From NCBI GenBank assembly GCA_030693205.1, contig JAUYBG010000010.1, positions 2,059 to 66,058 on the forward strand: a stretch of DNA of 64,000 nucleotides, written 5' to 3'. The notes under the pieces are model-generated. The model had not been told where the DNA came from and did not search any database. It worked only from the letters and a program-made list of their open reading frames with translations. This DNA comes from a bacterium. Lineage in GTDB: Bacteria; Patescibacteriota; Minisyncoccia; JAHIHE01. Below, in pieces: positions 19,394 to 32,202 of the stretch. Position numbers and translations under genes: made by a program. Within the stretch, counting starts at the first letter, position 1, and every line of letters starts with the position of its first letter.

Positions 19394-19921
19394 ATGTCTA
19401 GGAATAATAAAAATAAACTTAAGCAAATTAAATCGGTTGAGACTGCGCAGGAAAATTTAGGTTCTTCTGCCGAAACACCAAAATCAGAAATGACTACTGT
19501 ATTAGAATTAGCCTCATCGGTAAATAAACACGAAGAGAGAATTAAAAACTTGGAAAAGGATATAAATAATCCAGAATGGGTACAAAAATTAGTTCATTCA
19601 CAATTATCCCAATCTCATATTATAAAGTTTATATTAATTATTTTTTTGATAATTTTATTATTCTCAACTCTTCTTTTTTATATTTTAATAATTTTTAAAA
19701 TAAATAATTTGATTACCATTTTTGAGTATATTAAAAATGATAAAGTTTTAAATATTGATAGTAAATTAATGGATAGTTTTAATCAATTATTTTATGAAAC
19801 AAAGATAACGGTTAATTTTATTGCTTACATTTTAGGAGGTATTACGACTGTTGGTATTTTGGGAATATTATTAAAAAAATTATTAGAAAAATTTATTGAA
19901 AATCTATCTATTAAAAAGTAA
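19394..19921 (+). CDS. Hypothetical membrane protein (175 aa)
   Basis: Two hydrophobic segments. AT-rich. Confidence 0.5.
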   Translation: MSRNNKNKLKQIKSVETAQENLGSSAETPKSEMTTVLELASSVNKHEERIKNLEKDINNPEWVQKLVHSQLSQSHIIKFILIIFLIILLFSTLLFYILIIFKINNLITIFEYIKNDKVLNIDSKLMDSFNQLFYETKITVNFIAYILGGITTVGILGILLKKLLEKFIENLSIKK

Positions 19922-19942
19922 TAATTAAATAAAACAATTTTT

Positions 19943-20086
19943 ATGCAAACACAAAATCTAATCAAGCAAATTGAAAAAGCAAGAAATTCAAAGGTAATTA
20001 CTTATATCACTAGCGATAGGCAGGGTCCGATTCAAACGCCTCAAGAGCAAGTAATGTGGCGGGTGGTCGGGCAGGGGTGGAAATAA
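19943..20086 (+). pseudogene. Degenerate N+C-terminal remnant (47 codons) of the S49-like protease gene found at 25950..26975
   Basis: The first roughly 28 codons (MQTQNLIKQIEKARNSKVITYITSDRQG) and last roughly 19 codons (PIQTPQEQVMWRVVGQGWK) match the ends of the 341-aa ORF at 25950. By eye, nucleotide identity is about 92% and 82% respectively. Confidence 0.75.
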
Positions 20087-20109: not shown

Positions 20110-21153
20110 ATGAATCGCCAAAAATCAGAACTTTATTTTTTACTTATTCTCCTTGCGGGAATCTTTATCCTCGCCTTTTTTATTTTCAGTCCTTTTCTCT
20201 ATGCGTTGATCTTGGCAATTGTTTTTGCAATTGTTTTTGAATCACTGCATAAAAAATTACTTACTATGACGCGAGATAGAAAGAGCTTGTCGGCGTTTCT
20301 CGCTACTATCTCTGTTTTTACCGTTGTTGTTGCGCCTCTCGCGCTTTTAGGCATACAGATTTTTCAGGAAGCAACCGGGCTTTACTTTTCTCTCATTGAG
20401 AATGGCGGCGCAACCGATCTTTCTCGCATCGTGAATGACGCCATACAGAACCTTAAAAGATTTTCTCCTGTGCCGATAGAATTTTCCGTTGATGTTAATC
20501 AATATTTAAAGCAGGGATTAAGCTGGCTGCTCCAGCATCTTGGTCCGCTCTTTGCGAATATTGCTAAAGTAATGGTGGGCGTTTTTATATTTCTCATCGC
20601 TCTTTATTACTTGTTTAAAGATGGCTGCAAACTGAAAAGAGCTATCATCGCTTTAAGTCCTTTGCAAGACATTCACGATGAAGCGATTTTTAATAAACTT
20701 GCCTTGGTAATTAATTCCGTCGTCAAAGGGAGTCTCACGGTGGCGCTCGTTCAAGGCATACTGACCGCAGTCGGGTTTGCTATTTTCGGAGTTCCCAATG
20801 CGATTCTATGGGGCAGTGTTGCGGCAATAGCCGCGTTAATGCCCGGCATTGGAACATCGCTGGTGATCCTACCGGCTATTCTCTACTTATACTTTAGCGG
20901 AGAGACGCTTTTTGCGGCCGGTCTTTTTATTTGGGGAATGACAGCGGTGGGGCTTATTGATAATTTTTTAGGTCCTAAGCTGATTGGGCGCGGCACGCAT
21001 TCGCACCCCTTAATTATTTTCCTCTCGGTCATTGGCGGCATTGGATTTTTTGGACCCATTGGTCTCTTGCTGGGACCTCTCACTATAAGCCTGCTTTTTG
21101 CCCTTTTGGATATTTATTCCTCTTTGACAAGGAAAGAAAAATCTATAATGTGA
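20110..21153 (+). CDS. AI-2E family (UPF0118, PerM/YhhT-like) transporter
   Basis: 347 aa with 7-8 TM segments in the characteristic AI-2E arrangement (GSLTVALVQGILTAVGF...PLIIFLSVIGG). Confidence 0.75.
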   Translation: MNRQKSELYFLLILLAGIFILAFFIFSPFLYALILAIVFAIVFESLHKKLLTMTRDRKSLSAFLATISVFTVVVAPLALLGIQIFQEATGLYFSLIENGGATDLSRIVNDAIQNLKRFSPVPIEFSVDVNQYLKQGLSWLLQHLGPLFANIAKVMVGVFIFLIALYYLFKDGCKLKRAIIALSPLQDIHDEAIFNKLALVINSVVKGSLTVALVQGILTAVGFAIFGVPNAILWGSVAAIAALMPGIGTSLVILPAILYLYFSGETLFAAGLFIWGMTAVGLIDNFLGPKLIGRGTHSHPLIIFLSVIGGIGFFGPIGLLLGPLTISLLFALLDIYSSLTRKEKSIM

Positions 21154-24255: not shown

Positions 24256-25722
24256 ATGATTATGCCAAACCTTAAGCAATTACTTAAAACGCTTAATCTA
24301 AAGCAACAAGCTTATGTAAATTTGAATTTGCCCGATTCTAAAAATGGAGAATATCTTCTTGCCGCTTTTCATTTAGTATCCGGGGGAAAGTTAAACATTC
24401 TGCAGGCGGCGGCGGAAATTGCCGCAGAATCTTCCACCGGCACAACTTTCAAAGTAAACACGGAAACTTCCTTTTCCAGAGAAATGAACGCGCTCGTTTA
24501 TCAGCTTGATCTAAAAAGAAACCTTGTTTGGGTTGCCTATCCCTGGAGACTTTTTGACAGAAGAGGAAATGTGCAGAATATCTTAACCTATATTGCTGGA
24601 AATATTCTTGGAATGAAAGAAGTGAGCGCTTTAAAATTATTAGATGTCTGGTTCCCTCCGGCAATGCTTGAACAGTATGATGGTCCAAGCTATACTCTTG
24701 ATGATATGCGAAAATATTTGAATGTCTATGGCAGGCCGATTTTAGGAACAATCATAAAACCCAAAATGGGATTAACCTCGGCGGAATACGCGGAAGCCGC
24801 TTATGATTTTTGGTCCGGTGGCGGAGATTTTGTCAAGAACGATGAGCCTCAGGCGGACCAGGACTTCTGTCCATACGATAAAATGGTAAAGCATGTAAAG
24901 GAAGCGATGGACAAAGCCGTCAAAGAAACCGGAAGGAAAAAAGTCCATTCGTTTAATGTTTCGGCGGCTGATTTTGACACAATGATCAAAAGGTGCGAGA
25001 TGATTAGAAATGCCGGTTTTGAACCGGGAAGTTACGCGTTTTTAATTGATGGCATTACGGCGGGATGGATGGCAGTACAGACATTAAGAAGAAGATATCC
25101 CGATGTATTCATTCATTTTCACCGGGCGGGACACGGCGGTTATACCAGACCGGAAAACCCAATAGGATTTACAGTATTGGTTTTATCTAAATTTGCAAGA
25201 TTGGCGGGAGCTTCAGGAATTCACACAGGAACAGCCGGCGTGGGAAAAATGAAAGGAAGTCCGGAAGAAGATGTTGTTGCCGCGCGCAATATTTTGCGTT
25301 TTAAAAGCAAAGGGCATTTCTTTGAACAAGAATGGGCGACAATACCCGAAACGGACAAAGATGCCATAAATCTTGTTCATAAAGATATTGCTCACAGGGT
25401 TATTTTAGAAGATGATAGCTGGAGAGGCATGAAGAAATGTTGCCCGATTATTTCCGGGGGTTTAGATCCGACATTGCTAAAGCCGTTTATTGATGTGATG
25501 GGAAATATAGATTTTATTACAACAATGGGCGCGGGATGCCACGCGCATCCAAAAGGAACCGCTGCCGGAGCAAAAGCATTAGTTCAAGCGTGCGAGGCCT
25601 ATAAAAAAGGGATTGATATTAAAAAATATGCCAAAAAACACAAGGAACTGGCAGAAGCTATAAGGTTTTTCTCAAAGGGGAGAGAAGAAATAAAACAAGC
25701 AAGGAATACGGAAAGGAGTTAG
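24256..25722 (+). CDS. rbcL: RuBisCO large-subunit-like protein, form II/III type
   Basis: IIKPKMGLT (catalytic Lys region), GGGDFVKNDE, IHFHRAGHG and GTAGVGKMKG motifs. Confidence 0.88.
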   Translation: MIMPNLKQLLKTLNLKQQAYVNLNLPDSKNGEYLLAAFHLVSGGKLNILQAAAEIAAESSTGTTFKVNTETSFSREMNALVYQLDLKRNLVWVAYPWRLFDRRGNVQNILTYIAGNILGMKEVSALKLLDVWFPPAMLEQYDGPSYTLDDMRKYLNVYGRPILGTIIKPKMGLTSAEYAEAAYDFWSGGGDFVKNDEPQADQDFCPYDKMVKHVKEAMDKAVKETGRKKVHSFNVSAADFDTMIKRCEMIRNAGFEPGSYAFLIDGITAGWMAVQTLRRRYPDVFIHFHRAGHGGYTRPENPIGFTVLVLSKFARLAGASGIHTGTAGVGKMKGSPEEDVVAARNILRFKSKGHFFEQEWATIPETDKDAINLVHKDIAHRVILEDDSWRGMKKCCPIISGGLDPTLLKPFIDVMGNIDFITTMGAGCHAHPKGTAAGAKALVQACEAYKKGIDIKKYAKKHKELAEAIRFFSKGREEIKQARNTERS

Positions 25723-25949
25723 TTTGGCAGTTATCCTTCTTCGGCCGATTATATCAAAAGTACCCTCCTAATTTTATAAAAAAATCGTGAAATGCCATCA
25801 GATTTGGCATGGATTATTTACAAATCCAAATACTGCATTATTTAGATTACATTCGTTAGAAGTTTTACCACCTACACTTCTGAGAACAGAAGAAATATTA
25901 AAAAAATAGAACAAAAAAAAATTTTAAAATTAATTCAAAAACAATTCTT

Positions 25950-26975
25950 ATGCAAACACAAAACCTAATCAAGCAAATTGAGAAATCAAGAAATTCAAAA
26001 GTAATTACTTATATCACTAGTGACAGGCAGGGGCCGGTGAATGCCCGGATTGCCATGGATATAATTCCGATTGTCAGCGCGCAATTACGGAAGATCGGAC
26101 GAGTGCCGAAGATAGATCTATTTTTATACAGCTCCGGCGGAGATACGATGGTGCCGTGGCGATTGGTTTCAATGATCCGCGAATATTGCGATACTTTTAG
26201 CGTTTTAATTCCTTATAAATCCCATAGCGCCGCGACAATGATCTCGCTCGGAGCGGATGAAATTGTAATGACGGATCTGGCGGAGCTCTCACCGATTGAT
26301 CCTTCGACAGCCAATGTTTTTAATCCTACTGATCCGGCGAACCCGCAAAGCAAAATTCCCATTTCCGTGGAAGACGTGATGGCATATTTTGACCTCGCGA
26401 AAAGCAAGTTTGGCATCAAAAGCGATGCGGAACTGGCAAAAATATTCAATAAATTCGTGGAAGCCAATCCGCAAATTCATCCTCTCGCGCTTGGCAATGT
26501 CAACCGCATTCATAACTTGATCCGGATGCTGGCCAAAAGTTTATTGAAAAGCCACAAGAAAAGAATGACCGATAATGAGATTGCCACGATCGTGGATTAT
26601 TTCACGGAGAAACTTTATTCCCATCAATATTTTATCGGCCGGCGCGAAGCGAAAGATGACTTGGGTTTGAAAAATGTCGTTAATGCCGACAGCGATCTCG
26701 CGAAATTGATGTCGGAACTTTACGAAGAATACAAAAAAGAAATGGGTTTGGGCGCGAACTGGAACGCCGAAGCGGAGCTGGGCGATGGCAGGGCGATAAA
26801 TACTAAAACCTATAAACTGGCTTGCATTGAAAATACCGATGAATCGAATTATTTTGAGCTTATTTTGGAATACCGGAAAGGCCAGGTAAATATTGTCCAG
26901 CAAACTCCGCAAGGCCCGATCCAAGTGCCGCAAGAGCAGGTGATGTGGCGAGTAGTAGGGCAAGGGTGGAAATAA
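25950..26975 (+). CDS. S49 / SDH-family (ClpP-fold) serine-peptidase-like protein
   Basis: LYSSGGDTMVPWRLVSMIREY...SHSAATMISLGADEIVMTDLAELSPIDP matches the SppA/SDH Ser-protease core. Confidence 0.65.
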   Translation: MQTQNLIKQIEKSRNSKVITYITSDRQGPVNARIAMDIIPIVSAQLRKIGRVPKIDLFLYSSGGDTMVPWRLVSMIREYCDTFSVLIPYKSHSAATMISLGADEIVMTDLAELSPIDPSTANVFNPTDPANPQSKIPISVEDVMAYFDLAKSKFGIKSDAELAKIFNKFVEANPQIHPLALGNVNRIHNLIRMLAKSLLKSHKKRMTDNEIATIVDYFTEKLYSHQYFIGRREAKDDLGLKNVVNADSDLAKLMSELYEEYKKEMGLGANWNAEAELGDGRAINTKTYKLACIENTDESNYFELILEYRKGQVNIVQQTPQGPIQVPQEQVMWRVVGQGWK

Positions 26976-27126
26976 ATTATAAGTTATCAAGTTATAAAGT
27001 AGAAAGTTATAAAGTTAAAAATAAGGTAAAAAATAGCCGGCGGAAAATTAAATTCGTCGGTTATTACGGTTTCTACATAAGGTATTCGGCGGAGCCGAAA
27101 CTTATCGTAAAATACCCACCCTGATA

Positions 27127-27163
27127 CCCCGCAGTAAAGCTGCGGGGTTGGGTTTATTTTTTT
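27127..27163 (+). terminator. Rho-independent terminator
   Basis: CCCCGCAG taaag CTGCGGGG followed by ttgggtttattttttt. Confidence 0.65.
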
Positions 27164-27426
27164 ATAAAAAGAAAAAAGAAGGTTTTAAATTATTTAATTT
27201 AAATTGCCTTCTTTGCGAGTTTTGTTTTTTAATAAGGGTGCAGTGATTATAAATCGTCAGTAGGGATTGGGGAGTGGGGGTTAATGGGCTTCGTTGCCCT
27301 ATAAAAAAAGTTTCTGAATATTCTATCTATGCTTGCCTTAATTGGCTTGCCTTACTGACGACAAATAAAGTATAAATTATTAATTGTTATTTGTCAAGAG
27401 AGGAACATTTATGTTAAGATGTAGTT

Positions 27427-28308
27427 ATGAATAAAGATTGTTACGTGATTTTTGCAAAAACTAATCATAATTTTATGCCTAAAAAAATTTTTATCACCAA
27501 TATTCAGGGCGAGAAAGAATTGTTTTCGCTCGGGAAAGTTTTCAGGAGCGCCAAAAGAGTGGGCGCTTCGGATCAGGAAGCGAAAAAAATTTCTACTGCT
27601 ATCGAGCAAGGGGCGTATTCCGGAATGAAAACCACGGAGATTTTTACGAAAGTGAGAGAAATGCTCGAGAAAAAAGACTTGAAGGCAGTTATGCGGTTTA
27701 ATCTCCGGGAAGCGATGAGAAAACTCGGTCCGACCGGGTATTCGTTTGAAAAATACGCGGGAGAGGTTTTCAAAAGCATGGGCTACAAGGTTAGTCTGAA
27801 TTTATTTATTCCGGGAAAATGCGTGACCTACGAAATTGATTTTTTGGCGGAAAAAGACGATTTTATTTATATCGGCGAATGCAAATACCACAAATTGCCG
27901 GAAGGAAAAGTGGATCTGCAGATAGCTCTTGCCAATTGCGCGCGGTTTCATGATATATTGGCGGCGGGAAAATTCGAAGGCAAAAAAGTAAAATCTATCT
28001 TGGTCACGAATACGAAACTTACCACTGAAGCGATAAAATTTTCCGAATGCAAGGGCATAGATCTTTTGGGCTGGCGGTATCCGGCGGAGCAGGGCCTCGA
28101 GTACTTGATCGAAAGCAGGAATCTCTATCCACTGACCATTTTACCGTCATTTTCCGGAAGATTGTCGGAATCTCTCTCTGCCCAAAAAACAATGCTGGTA
28201 AAAAATATATTGGAAATGAAGGATGCCGATTTTCCAGAGAAAAAAGAATTTTACGCCGAGGGATTCGATGCTTTGGTAAAAGAGGCGGAGATTCTTTTAA
28301 AAAAGTAA
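27427..28308 (+). CDS. ATP-cone domain fused to an Mrr-like PD-(D/E)xK restriction-endonuclease domain
   Basis: The N-terminus has an NrdR-type ATP-cone pattern (KIFITNIQGEKELFSLGKVFRSAKRVG...AKKISTAIEQ). The C-terminus has GYSFEKYAGEVFKSMGY...EIDFLAEKDDFIYIGECKYH (D-x-E-C-K). Confidence 0.65.
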   Translation: MNKDCYVIFAKTNHNFMPKKIFITNIQGEKELFSLGKVFRSAKRVGASDQEAKKISTAIEQGAYSGMKTTEIFTKVREMLEKKDLKAVMRFNLREAMRKLGPTGYSFEKYAGEVFKSMGYKVSLNLFIPGKCVTYEIDFLAEKDDFIYIGECKYHKLPEGKVDLQIALANCARFHDILAAGKFEGKKVKSILVTNTKLTTEAIKFSECKGIDLLGWRYPAEQGLEYLIESRNLYPLTILPSFSGRLSESLSAQKTMLVKNILEMKDADFPEKKEFYAEGFDALVKEAEILLKK

Positions 28309-31209: not shown

Positions 31210-32202
31210 ATGTCTTCTTTATCTGAAATTCGCCAGGATCTAGTTAGCGGCGCGTGGGTTGTGATCGCCACCGGACGCGCTAAACGCCCCGACGATTTTA
31301 AGAACAAAAAAGATCAAAAACCCAACGAAAACGGGGGCGAATGTTTTTTTTGCGATATGTCAAAACAGGCCAAACCGGTTTTGGTTTACGAAAAGTCGAA
31401 AGGGGACTGGACAGTAGCGGTCGTGCCCAATAAATACCCGGCTTTTGATTACTCGAAGAAACTGGATAGGCGGACCGAAGGGCCTTTTTCAGTAGTCAAT
31501 GGCGTCGGATATCACGAAGTTATAATTACGCGAGATCACGCAAAGCACATTGCACTTATGAGCACGGTTCAGGTTATGGAAATAATAAACGCTTATCAGG
31601 AGCGATACTTGAATTTAATGAATAAGAGATTTGTGGATTATATTTCTATTTTTCACAATCATGGCAAAGAAGCGGGAGCGTCGGTCAATCATCCCCATTC
31701 GCAACTGATCGCTATGCCGGTCATTGATCCGGATGTTTACCGGAGCTTGAACGGCTCTGATAATTATTGGCATCAGAACAAAGAATGCGTTCATTGCGTA
31801 ATGATCGATTGGGAAAAAGAAAATAAAAAAAGAGTTATATTTGAAAATAAAGATTTTATCGCGTTTTGTCCTTTTGCCTCGCGGAGCGCTTTTGAAGCGC
31901 GGATCTACCCCAAATTTCACGCGCCGTATTTTGAGAGAATTACTCCGGCCGGCAAGATCCAGCTTGCGGAAGCGCTAAGGATAGTTTTGGCAAAGATCAA
32001 TATAGGGCTGGATAATCCGCCGTATAATTTTTTCTTGCATACCGCGCCTTGCGACGGCAAAGATTATCCTCATTATCATTGGCATTTTGAAATTATGCCG
32101 AAAACTTCCATTTGGGCCGGTTTTGAACTAAGCACCGGAATCGAAATTTCCACTATTGAGCCGGAAAAAGCGGCTGAGTTTTTAAGAGAGCAAAAAGTTT
32201 AG
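31210..32202 (+). CDS. GalT-family (HIT superfamily) nucleotidyltransferase, galactose-1-phosphate uridylyltransferase-like
   Basis: HPHSQLIAMP (HxHxQ), Cys/His zinc site CFFC..., and length. Confidence 0.75.
   Translation: MSSLSEIRQDLVSGAWVVIATGRAKRPDDFKNKKDQKPNENGGECFFCDMSKQAKPVLVYEKSKGDWTVAVVPNKYPAFDYSKKLDRRTEGPFSVVNGVGYHEVIITRDHAKHIALMSTVQVMEIINAYQERYLNLMNKRFVDYISIFHNHGKEAGASVNHPHSQLIAMPVIDPDVYRSLNGSDNYWHQNKECVHCVMIDWEKENKKRVIFENKDFIAFCPFASRSAFEARIYPKFHAPYFERITPAGKIQLAEALRIVLAKINIGLDNPPYNFFLHTAPCDGKDYPHYHWHFEIMPKTSIWAGFELSTGIEISTIEPEKAAEFLREQKV

Follow-up and report, generated by a model that had tools for sequence, protein, structure and literature searches.

What would a bacterium do with a nuclease whose N terminus is built like the nucleotide switch of a ribonucleotide reductase (RNR)? 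The question is raised by a gene at positions 27427-28308 of a 64,000-nucleotide stretch of a Patescibacteriota contig (JAUYBG010000010.1, assembly GCA_030693205.1, positions 2,059 to 66,058), which we refer to as the window. To our knowledge, all experimental work on ATP-cones concerns the regulation of RNRs and of NrdR. A sequence-only reading of this DNA had described the gene product as a fusion of two domains, an ATP-cone and an Mrr-like PD-(D/E)xK nuclease core, and had suggested that it is a defence or DNA-repair effector gated by dATP/ATP. We find that sequence, structure, catalytic residues and C-terminal domain all place the protein in the AF1548-like nuclease family, with a predicted nuclease activity. 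We tentatively favour a function that the sequence-only reading did not consider, namely that of a nuclease gated by adenine nucleotides and serving regulated nucleic-acid turnover and nucleotide salvage.

The uninterrupted open reading frame (ORF) of 293 codons lies on the plus strand, and the motifs quoted in the sequence-only reading, YEIDFLAEKDDFIYIGECKYH, are found in its DNA and translation. The gene is real, because database homologues (362 proteins at E ≤ 1e-3) reach down to E = 2e-157, with 88% identity for the top match. Residue numbers given here count from the Met at 27475.

An AlphaFold2 model of the full-length protein, built from the family alignment (pLDDT 88.5, pTM 0.79), has as its best Foldseek match in the PDB the Archaeoglobus protein AF1548 (1Y88; E = 4e-14, TM 0.80 on the target). 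The same entry is recovered by single-sequence phmmer at E = 3.3e-24 and with a 21-sequence profile at E = 1.5e-40, the latter over positions 94-273. The next PDB matches of the full model are NucS/EndoMS, Card1/Can2/Cdn1 and MspJI, and LmuA is also a neighbour. The label 'Mrr-like' is apt in one respect only: the catalytic domain scores 24.3 bits against the Pfam model Mrr_cat, above its gathering score of 21 bits, but the protein is far closer to AF1548, gives no Pfam match to the winged-helix domain Mrr_N, having the ATP-cone at its N terminus, and lies outside any mobile or defence context. No NCBIfam model matched the family.

AF1548 has been predicted to adopt a restriction-endonuclease fold with catalytic residues D38, E51 and K53 (Yooseph et al. 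2007, PMC1821046), and these align with D122, E135 and K137 of the window protein. Among 259 full-length relatives, the set behind all residue counts given here, D122, E135 and K137 are present in every sequence and E92, the first acidic catalytic residue, located on helix 1 of the core, in 258. The same four residues are invariant in a sister subfamily described below. As judged from these alignments, the active site is under strong selection and the protein is very probably an enzyme rather than a decayed fold; the restriction-endonuclease core is intact, as had been claimed.

Beyond the core lies a third domain, overlooked in the two-domain description, that spans residues ~205-277 and is modelled as five helices. 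When residues 205-277 alone were used as a profile, they matched only 1Y88 residues 128-193 (E = 4e-7). The corresponding Pfam family PF22357 (AF1548-like_C) is above threshold in homologues, and in the window protein itself Pfam does not detect it at E ≤ 1. It is a probable nucleic-acid-binding module, which in terms of the SCOP classification may be HhH-like. AF1548 shares both nuclease core and C-terminal domain with the window protein; by contrast, its solved chain has only ~22 residues before the core, hence no ATP-cone.

The ATP-cone itself was modelled separately, so that the nuclease core would not dominate the fold search. All of the top 50 PDB matches of this AlphaFold model (residues 1-82, pLDDT 83) are ATP-cones, from NrdR, class Ia and III RNRs and NrdB (TMq 0.60-0.77, rmsd 2.1-3.9 Å), and NrdR and RNR alpha subunits also appear among the matches of the full-length model. 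A profile of the N terminus searched against the PDB gave weak matches (E = 0.4-1.0) in exact register, one to E. coli NrdA starting at its residue 1, the other to residues 46-72 of S. coelicolor NrdR; because these sequence-only matches are weak, we let structure settle the identity of the domain. On the model, the N terminus carries a bona fide ATP-cone fold, in the ~90 residues where the sequence-only reading had placed it. Several homologues exceed the Pfam gathering score for the ATP-cone (PF03477): P0039 with 27.0, P0079 with 27.9, and proteins from Pontibacter and Criblamydia with 28.3 and 36.2 bits.

Is the cone equipped to bind nucleotides? In an ungapped register to S. coelicolor NrdR (offset +41), positions 7, 9, 15 and 21 of the window protein correspond to V48, K50, E56 and K62, residues whose substitution by Ala lowers nucleotide binding (PMC12176259). 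Three of these four contacts are retained (I7, E15 and K21 for V48, E56 and K62) and the fourth, K50, is changed to Asn9. The cone residues kept among the relatives are G12 (249 of 259), E15 (235), F17 (235), K21 (256), T53 (242) and Lys or Arg at position 78 (258). With this residue pattern, nucleotide sensing by the cone is plausible. NrdR and RNR cones have the same fold, the N-terminal position here is in register with the residue numbering of E. coli NrdA, and the equivalents of V48, E56 and K62 are kept in the nuclease family. The output differs: a reductase or a Zn-ribbon there, a nuclease here. The window protein has neither a Zn-ribbon of the NrdR type nor a Cys4 motif, and its cone is at the extreme N terminus.

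The junction between the two domains suggests how one might control the other. The last helix of the cone is joined to the first catalytic helix by a short motif in which G85, G88 and F91 occur in 259 of 259 relatives and P86 in 256. ATP-cones of NrdR and RNRs are described as acting through nucleotide-dependent oligomerisation, and that of NrdR also senses ADP when the energy charge is low (PMC12176259). By analogy, we suggest that the cone would be occupied by adenine nucleotides (ATP, ADP or dATP), and that occupancy would shift the oligomeric state, or the pose of the last cone helix, as in RNRs and NrdR. From that helix, the invariant LGPxGxxFE linker leading to the Glu92 helix could form a direct allosteric path. 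PD-(D/E)xK enzymes are usually dimers, so control of the oligomer would be an effective switch. Nuclease activity might then be switched by adenylate or deoxynucleoside triphosphate (dNTP) status, in an ATP-off or an ATP-on sense; gating by dATP/ATP, which had been proposed before, we too infer from the sequence.

The same logic of a nucleotide sensor joined to a PD-(D/E)xK nuclease is found in Card1, Can2 and Cdn1, and the window protein may work like Card1 and Can2, its sensor gating its nuclease. In those proteins, however, the sensor is a CARF domain and the activator cyclic oligoadenylate, whereas here the sensor is an ATP-cone and there is no CRISPR or defence context. GajA, which is inhibited by nucleotides, is another system that the protein could resemble.

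In itself the gene is unremarkable and belongs to a large family already visible in databases. When 1.84 billion cluster representatives were searched exhaustively with a profile, 1,444 proteins scored E ≤ 1e-3, and 514 of them E ≤ 1e-30. The Patescibacteria type amounts to at least 514 clusters at 50% identity with a fixed architecture of ~277-285 residues; among the top 150 matches listed, nearly all are full length, at 263-295 residues. Relatives occur in 387 species-representative genomes, and the best 80 of these are nearly all Patescibacteria. A tblastn search of plasmids gave two full-length homologues at ~30% identity, in Pontibacter (Bacteroidota) and Criblamydia (Chlamydiota), both with the three domains present and the catalytic residues invariant, and a search seeded with the Pontibacter protein found at least 7,522 clusters (90% identity) at E ≤ 1e-10, mostly of ~283-288 residues. 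Among the matches listed with a named source, this sister subfamily belongs to Bacteroidota. Database names are generic ('ATP cone domain-containing protein', 'restriction endonuclease', 'ATPase') and we found no literature on the family or its gene cassette, in line with the earlier description of an architecture known from genomes and uncharacterised.

The evidence that decides our preference comes from the genes around the sister subfamily, whose members are ~30% identical to the window protein and have the same three domains. In the Pontibacter and Criblamydia plasmids the nuclease gene is the first of four, and the same run occurs in a Cyclobacterium contig. The second gene encodes an MBL/beta-CASP/RMMBL hydrolase, for which the closest NCBIfam models are aCPSF1 and Cas14-type beta-CASP RNases, both below their cutoffs. 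The third encodes a ~500-residue TP-family protein above the cutoffs of NF003338 and TIGR02645, the latter a sister of the AMP phosphorylase model TIGR03327. The fourth encodes a Prs-subfamily protein (NF005537).

This arrangement recurs across the 84 sister-subfamily loci that we sampled (plasmids, contigs and 80 metagenome loci). For 54 of them the sequence continues for at least 4 kb downstream; 36 of these carry one or more of the beta-CASP, TP-family and Prs-like genes, nearly always just downstream, and in 20 loci among these the beta-CASP gene is the very next one. Where loci reach at least 10 kb (n = 44), 31 contain a beta-CASP gene, 20 a TP-family gene and 16 a Prs-like gene. The median gap between nuclease and beta-CASP genes is 15.5 bp; in 22 of 38 pairs it does not exceed 50 bp, and some pairs show a 4-bp overlap. 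Because of this operon evidence, we prefer turnover and salvage to the other explanations.

Position in the cassette could be taken differently. A regulator is usually the first gene of its operon, and NrdR likewise pairs an ATP-cone with a DNA-binding domain; the protein would then be a nucleotide-responsive, NrdR-like DNA-binding regulator of the downstream salvage operon, binding operators through its nuclease fold and C-terminal helical domain and acting without bulk cleavage. We regard this as the least probable of the explanations weighed here. The four catalytic residues, essentially invariant in the 259 members and in the sister subfamily, speak of selection for catalysis, the close spacing or overlap with the beta-CASP gene suggests that the two proteins are co-produced in stoichiometric amounts, and in Patescibacteria there is no operon to control.

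The islands around the sister-subfamily cassette also contain tandem USP genes, PPK2, an AAA_28/dNK-like kinase, a GAPDH-like protein and P-type ATPase or Cus efflux genes. Three of them (L087, L089 and L091) bring together genes for a P-type cation ATPase and RND/Cus efflux with PPK2, tandem USP, a GAPDH-like protein and an SDF transporter; in the first, the Criblamydia plasmid NZ_LK031773.1 (5755-20489), the nuclease is flanked by phosphoketolase, GlgP and acetate kinase. The whole looks like an energy-stress or fermentation island, plasmid-borne in two phyla. A Bradyrhizobium trio of MBL, Prs and TP-family genes (bll3115-3117) is induced under microoxia at the protein and transcript levels (PMC6515984); an ATP-cone gene beside it was not found in that paper or its supplements. 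The low-oxygen locus lxa of Burkholderia was considered as another home of the cassette and set aside, there being no mention of it in the main text of the paper concerned. None of the 84 islands contains RuBisCO or ribose-1,5-bisphosphate (R15P) isomerase.

Two further genes that recur within the cassette carry no annotation. An acidic protein of ~84 residues with a Cys-rich tail is encoded between nuclease and beta-CASP in eight sister-subfamily loci (for example, L170 gene 8), and a DUF3108-like protein of ~227 residues follows the Prs-like gene in 19 (for example, L107 gene 13).

If the cassette works as one unit, turnover and salvage could proceed as follows. Endonucleolytic cuts in RNA or DNA, with the substrate probably held by the C-terminal helical domain, would be the entry step. 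Exonucleases, in the cassette the beta-CASP protein, would turn the fragments into nucleoside monophosphates, and the enzymes of AMP-phosphorylase type and the Prs-like enzymes would convert these to ribose bisphosphate or phosphoribosyl pyrophosphate plus bases. A bolder version of this idea strikes us as doubtful, though worth stating. The family would comprise the first ATP-cone-controlled nucleases, and the first such enzymes outside ribonucleotide reduction, carrying out an adenylate-charge-gated catabolism of the cell's own nucleic acids, probably RNA or ribosomes. Together with the beta-CASP exonuclease and the AMP-phosphorylase-like and Prs-like enzymes they would make up a new stress or dormancy module in Bacteroidota, Chlamydiota and others, and in Patescibacteria their activity would be the step so far missing upstream of a RuBisCO-dependent AMP pathway, which it would feed.

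The consequences would be considerable. If true, the ATP-cone allosteric switch would extend to a nuclease output, and AF1548, whose structure dates from 2004 and is still labelled 'unknown function', would have gained one. If the operon association holds, there is a testable four-gene module that ties energy and nucleotide status to nucleic-acid breakdown. Patescibacteria are thought to lack de novo nucleotide synthesis, and a nuclease of this type would suggest a source of substrate for RuBisCO-based nucleotide catabolism in these ultra-small bacteria. With at least 7,500 clusters of the same 280-residue architecture in several phyla, the family is no curiosity.

A number of findings weigh against an adenine-nucleotide-gated turnover nuclease, and some of them concern the cone. 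The window protein scores 18.5 bits (E = 0.003) against the Pfam ATP-cone model, below the gathering score of 25.8; the ATP-cone assignment of the sequence-only reading, upheld by the fold and by the scores of homologues, falls short by this measure. The canonical motif K-R-D-G reads N-I-Q-G, and the canonical Arg at position 10 occurs in none of the 259 relatives; that the Lys-Arg pair which binds phosphate in canonical cones is Asn-Ile in this protein is the chief caveat to our reading. With Asn9, the missing Arg and the sub-threshold score, nucleotide binding could be weak, altered or lost.

These same features would fit a degenerate cone, a structural or oligomerisation module attached to a constitutive nuclease. 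The Lys replaced by Asn9 corresponds to E. coli NrdR K53, which bridges the phosphates of both bound nucleotides (PMC12176259). Some RNRs do have ATP-cones that bind no nucleotide. We nevertheless consider a degenerate cone improbable. The strong conservation of G12, E15, F17, K21, T53 and Lys/Arg78 would be unexpected for a decayed site, and position 9 is Lys in 134 relatives and Asn in 124, that is, one or the other in 258 of 259, so that it appears constrained rather than drifting. The sister subfamily keeps the phosphate-binding Lys, but has Val at the position of E15.

Other findings that weigh against the turnover reading concern gene context. The subfamily that supplies the operon evidence shares only ~30% identity with the window protein, and carrying that evidence over assumes orthology of function. 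We found no experimental characterisation of any family member, including AF1548, in the literature. In the 85 Patescibacteria loci of our ORF clustering sample, taken from the 80 best matches, no neighbour recurs in more than 20%; the commonest are an HD protein (17), DUF167 (16), a tRNA-binding protein (15), ClpB (13) and YbaB (12). These reflect loose synteny and there is no conserved operon partner. A relative at 84% identity is syntenic with the window; distant relatives are not. A beta-CASP gene is never found near the nuclease in the Patescibacteria loci, and the 64-kb window contains no beta-CASP, TP-family/AMP phosphorylase or Prs gene (R15P isomerase was not searched for).

What the window does contain is a RuBisCO gene of form II/III-like type, two genes upstream of the nuclease gene and directly after a UPF0182 membrane protein. 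RuBisCO in such bacteria is an enzyme of the nucleotide (AMP) catabolic pathway; the remaining genes of that pathway, if present, lie outside the window. Taking the 85 related loci and the window together (86 loci), RuBisCO or TP-family genes are near the nuclease in three, from two lineages (TP-family in two, RuBisCO in two including the window). In one of them (L081:42-6846), genes for an R15P-isomerase-like protein, a type III RuBisCO (519 bits, above cutoff), an AMP-phosphorylase-like protein, a PIN toxin-like protein, YbaB and the nuclease follow one another on one strand. A second locus (L044) is of the same lineage, its nuclease being 83% identical to that of the first, and the window is an independent lineage (48%). 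Because two lineages in ~85 are near rough chance expectation, we hold the link of the nuclease to RuBisCO and the AMP pathway in Patescibacteria to be suggestive only; the striking gene order of L081 and the RuBisCO of the window speak for a turnover role, the rarity of such loci against it. The one element common to the Patescibacteria and sister-subfamily contexts is an enzyme of the TP-family/AMP-phosphorylase type. At the edge of the L081 locus, a 497-residue ORF for the C-terminal part of a family-B DNA polymerase, 42 bp from the end, precedes the R15P-isomerase-like gene.

How the gene is inherited bears on the two functions that the sequence-only reading had proposed. The pairwise identity of the nuclease has a median of 52-56%, close to that of the co-located YchF (52%), tRNA-binding protein (56%) and ClpB (64%), and across the same genome pairs nuclease divergence tracks that of neighbours (Spearman 0.53-0.83 in five of eight neighbour families). 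An identity similar to and correlated with that of housekeeping neighbours indicates, for loci that are the 80 best matches, that the gene is inherited vertically under strong constraint, unlike restriction or defence genes.

A defence effector, in the sense of an anti-phage or type IV restriction-like nuclease restrained by normal nucleotide levels and freed when infection perturbs ATP or dNTP pools, would parallel GajA and Card1/Can2. The Mrr_cat match points this way, as do the presence of Card1, Can2, Cdn1, MspJI and LmuA among the structural neighbours, weak PADLOC matches to the CARF_PDDEXK and ZorD nuclease domains and the two copies on plasmids. However, the best matches in PADLOC-DB (E = 7e-4 and 3e-3) are below threshold and cover only the generic nuclease core, and those to PHROGs are sub-threshold and partial. 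The tblastn search found no copy in phages, and viral structures match single domains only. No DNA methyltransferase or known defence gene is a conserved neighbour in the 85 Patescibacteria loci, nor is there such a partner in the sister subfamily; the genes around the nuclease are of housekeeping or metabolic type, with no defence island. A cognate methyltransferase of the type II restriction-modification kind is likewise missing from the neighbourhood in the window, and none forms a conserved cluster in the 85 and 84 loci; the one adjacent methyltransferase seen (L004) is of HemK/tRNA type. The partner proteins of the cassette give no matches to the defence models of PADLOC-DB. Defence genes do not typically keep ~50% identity across Patescibacteria classes in step with housekeeping genes, the GC content of the gene is unremarkable and the plasmid copies sit within metabolic operons. 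We rejected a restriction-modification or defence role on the absence of methyltransferase, significant PADLOC/PHROGs match and phage copy and on the housekeeping-like inheritance, and rate a defence function as very unlikely.

Vertical, housekeeping-like evolution would also suit an endonuclease of repair or recombination, structure-specific like NucS/EndoMS or Hjc, in which the ATP-cone tunes cleavage to the dNTP/ATP pool and the capacity for repair synthesis. NucS/EndoMS is near in structure after AF1548 (2vld, E = 1.4e-4, 118 columns, rmsd 3.1 Å, 23% identity over a similar minimal core; also 5gke) and has the same housekeeping type of inheritance. Repair nucleases have DNA-binding tails similar to the C-terminal helical domain. 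In the window, RuvX is encoded three genes further downstream; YbaB and Cas4-like PDDEXK_1 genes recur close to the nuclease gene in some loci, and some members bear the JGI label 'Holliday junction resolvase'. We nonetheless think a repair function unlikely, if less so than a degenerate cone. The window protein lacks the N-terminal domain of NucS, has no Pfam or NCBIfam match to NucS and no Pfam match to Hjc, and its partner genes differ from those of NucS; RecA, RuvABC, MutS/L and ligase are not conserved neighbours, and in the sister subfamily the conserved partners are enzymes of nucleotide catabolism and of RNA type.

The features of the locus are collected in the table. The coding start is most likely ATG 27475 rather than 27427, giving a product of 277 residues. 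Homologues are mostly 277 residues long and begin MP(K/R)KI; when the upstream DNA is aligned to that of two close relatives (L006, 87% protein identity, and L001, 84%), the ATG at 27427 reads ATA and ATT, and conservation with both begins at ATG 27475. A promoter-like site just upstream implies, on the weak evidence of a consensus scan, a transcript start near 27427. It is because of homologue lengths, the unconserved ATG and this site that we moved the start. The terminator-like hairpin further upstream suggests that the nuclease gene opens a new transcript.

Table. Features of the nuclease gene and its surroundings (window coordinates; aa, amino acids).
Feature	Position	Strand	Basis or remark
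Form II/III-like RuBisCO	24256..25722	+	Pfam RuBisCO_large; NCBIfam NF010002, 643 bits; type III model below cutoff
Terminator-like hairpin, 10-bp stem, 7 GC pairs, T-rich tail	27126..27148	+	Consensus match; 3' end of SDH-protease unit
Promoter-like site, TTGTCA-18-TAAGAT with TG	27391..27420	+	Consensus scan; block conserved in L006; weak evidence
Coding sequence, ATP-cone/AF1548-type nuclease	27475..28308	+	277 aa plus stop; maximal ORF from 27427
Predicted ATP-cone domain, aa 1-81, beta-hairpin plus helices	27475..27717	+	Fold search, Pfam in homologues, residue conservation
Linker motif L84-G-P-T-G-Y-S-F-E92	27724..27750	+	Last cone helix joined to first catalytic helix
PD-(D/E)xK nuclease core, AF1548 type, aa 84-204	27724..28086	+	Mrr_cat; PDB 1Y88 by sequence, profile and Foldseek
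Predicted catalytic Asp122, D of EID	27838..27840	+	Equals AF1548 D38; 259/259
Predicted catalytic Glu135-Cys136-Lys137, ExK motif	27877..27885	+	Equals AF1548 E51 and K53; E135 and K137 in 259/259
AF1548-like C-terminal helical domain, aa 205-277, motif GLExxI...LYPxTxLP	28087..28305	+	Profile match to 1Y88

A non-coding gap of ~500 bp (26976-27474) precedes the nuclease gene. In one close relative (L001), the equivalent gap carries a gene for a 137-residue dual-specificity phosphatase (DSPc), of which no remnant or pseudogene was detected in the gap of the window. There are no paralogues of the nuclease within the 64 kb.

The genes of this region of the window lie on one strand, in the order UPF0182, RuBisCO, SDH-type protease, nuclease, NmrA-like, DUF192, RuvX, GT2 and GalT/HIT-like. 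The last of these (31210-32202), a GalT/HIT-superfamily gene four genes downstream of the nuclease and co-directional with it, matches DUF4921 and, weakly, the N-terminal Ap4A-phosphorylase model, as a nucleotide-handling enzyme. Elsewhere in Patescibacteria, Cas4-like PD-(D/E)XK nucleases (Pfam PDDEXK_1, one also Cas_Cas4) are encoded near or next to the nuclease in ~16 of the 85 loci (for example, L011:5195-6013 and L010:7215-7904), and in some lineages such a protein may partner it as a second nuclease. Finally, the 5' end of the SDH-type ClpP-like protease gene (25928-26036, including ~22 bp upstream) has a 109-bp copy, 90% identical, at 19923-20029, which sits between the ORFs 19394-19921 and 20110-21153 and is a short dispersed duplicate or gene fragment.

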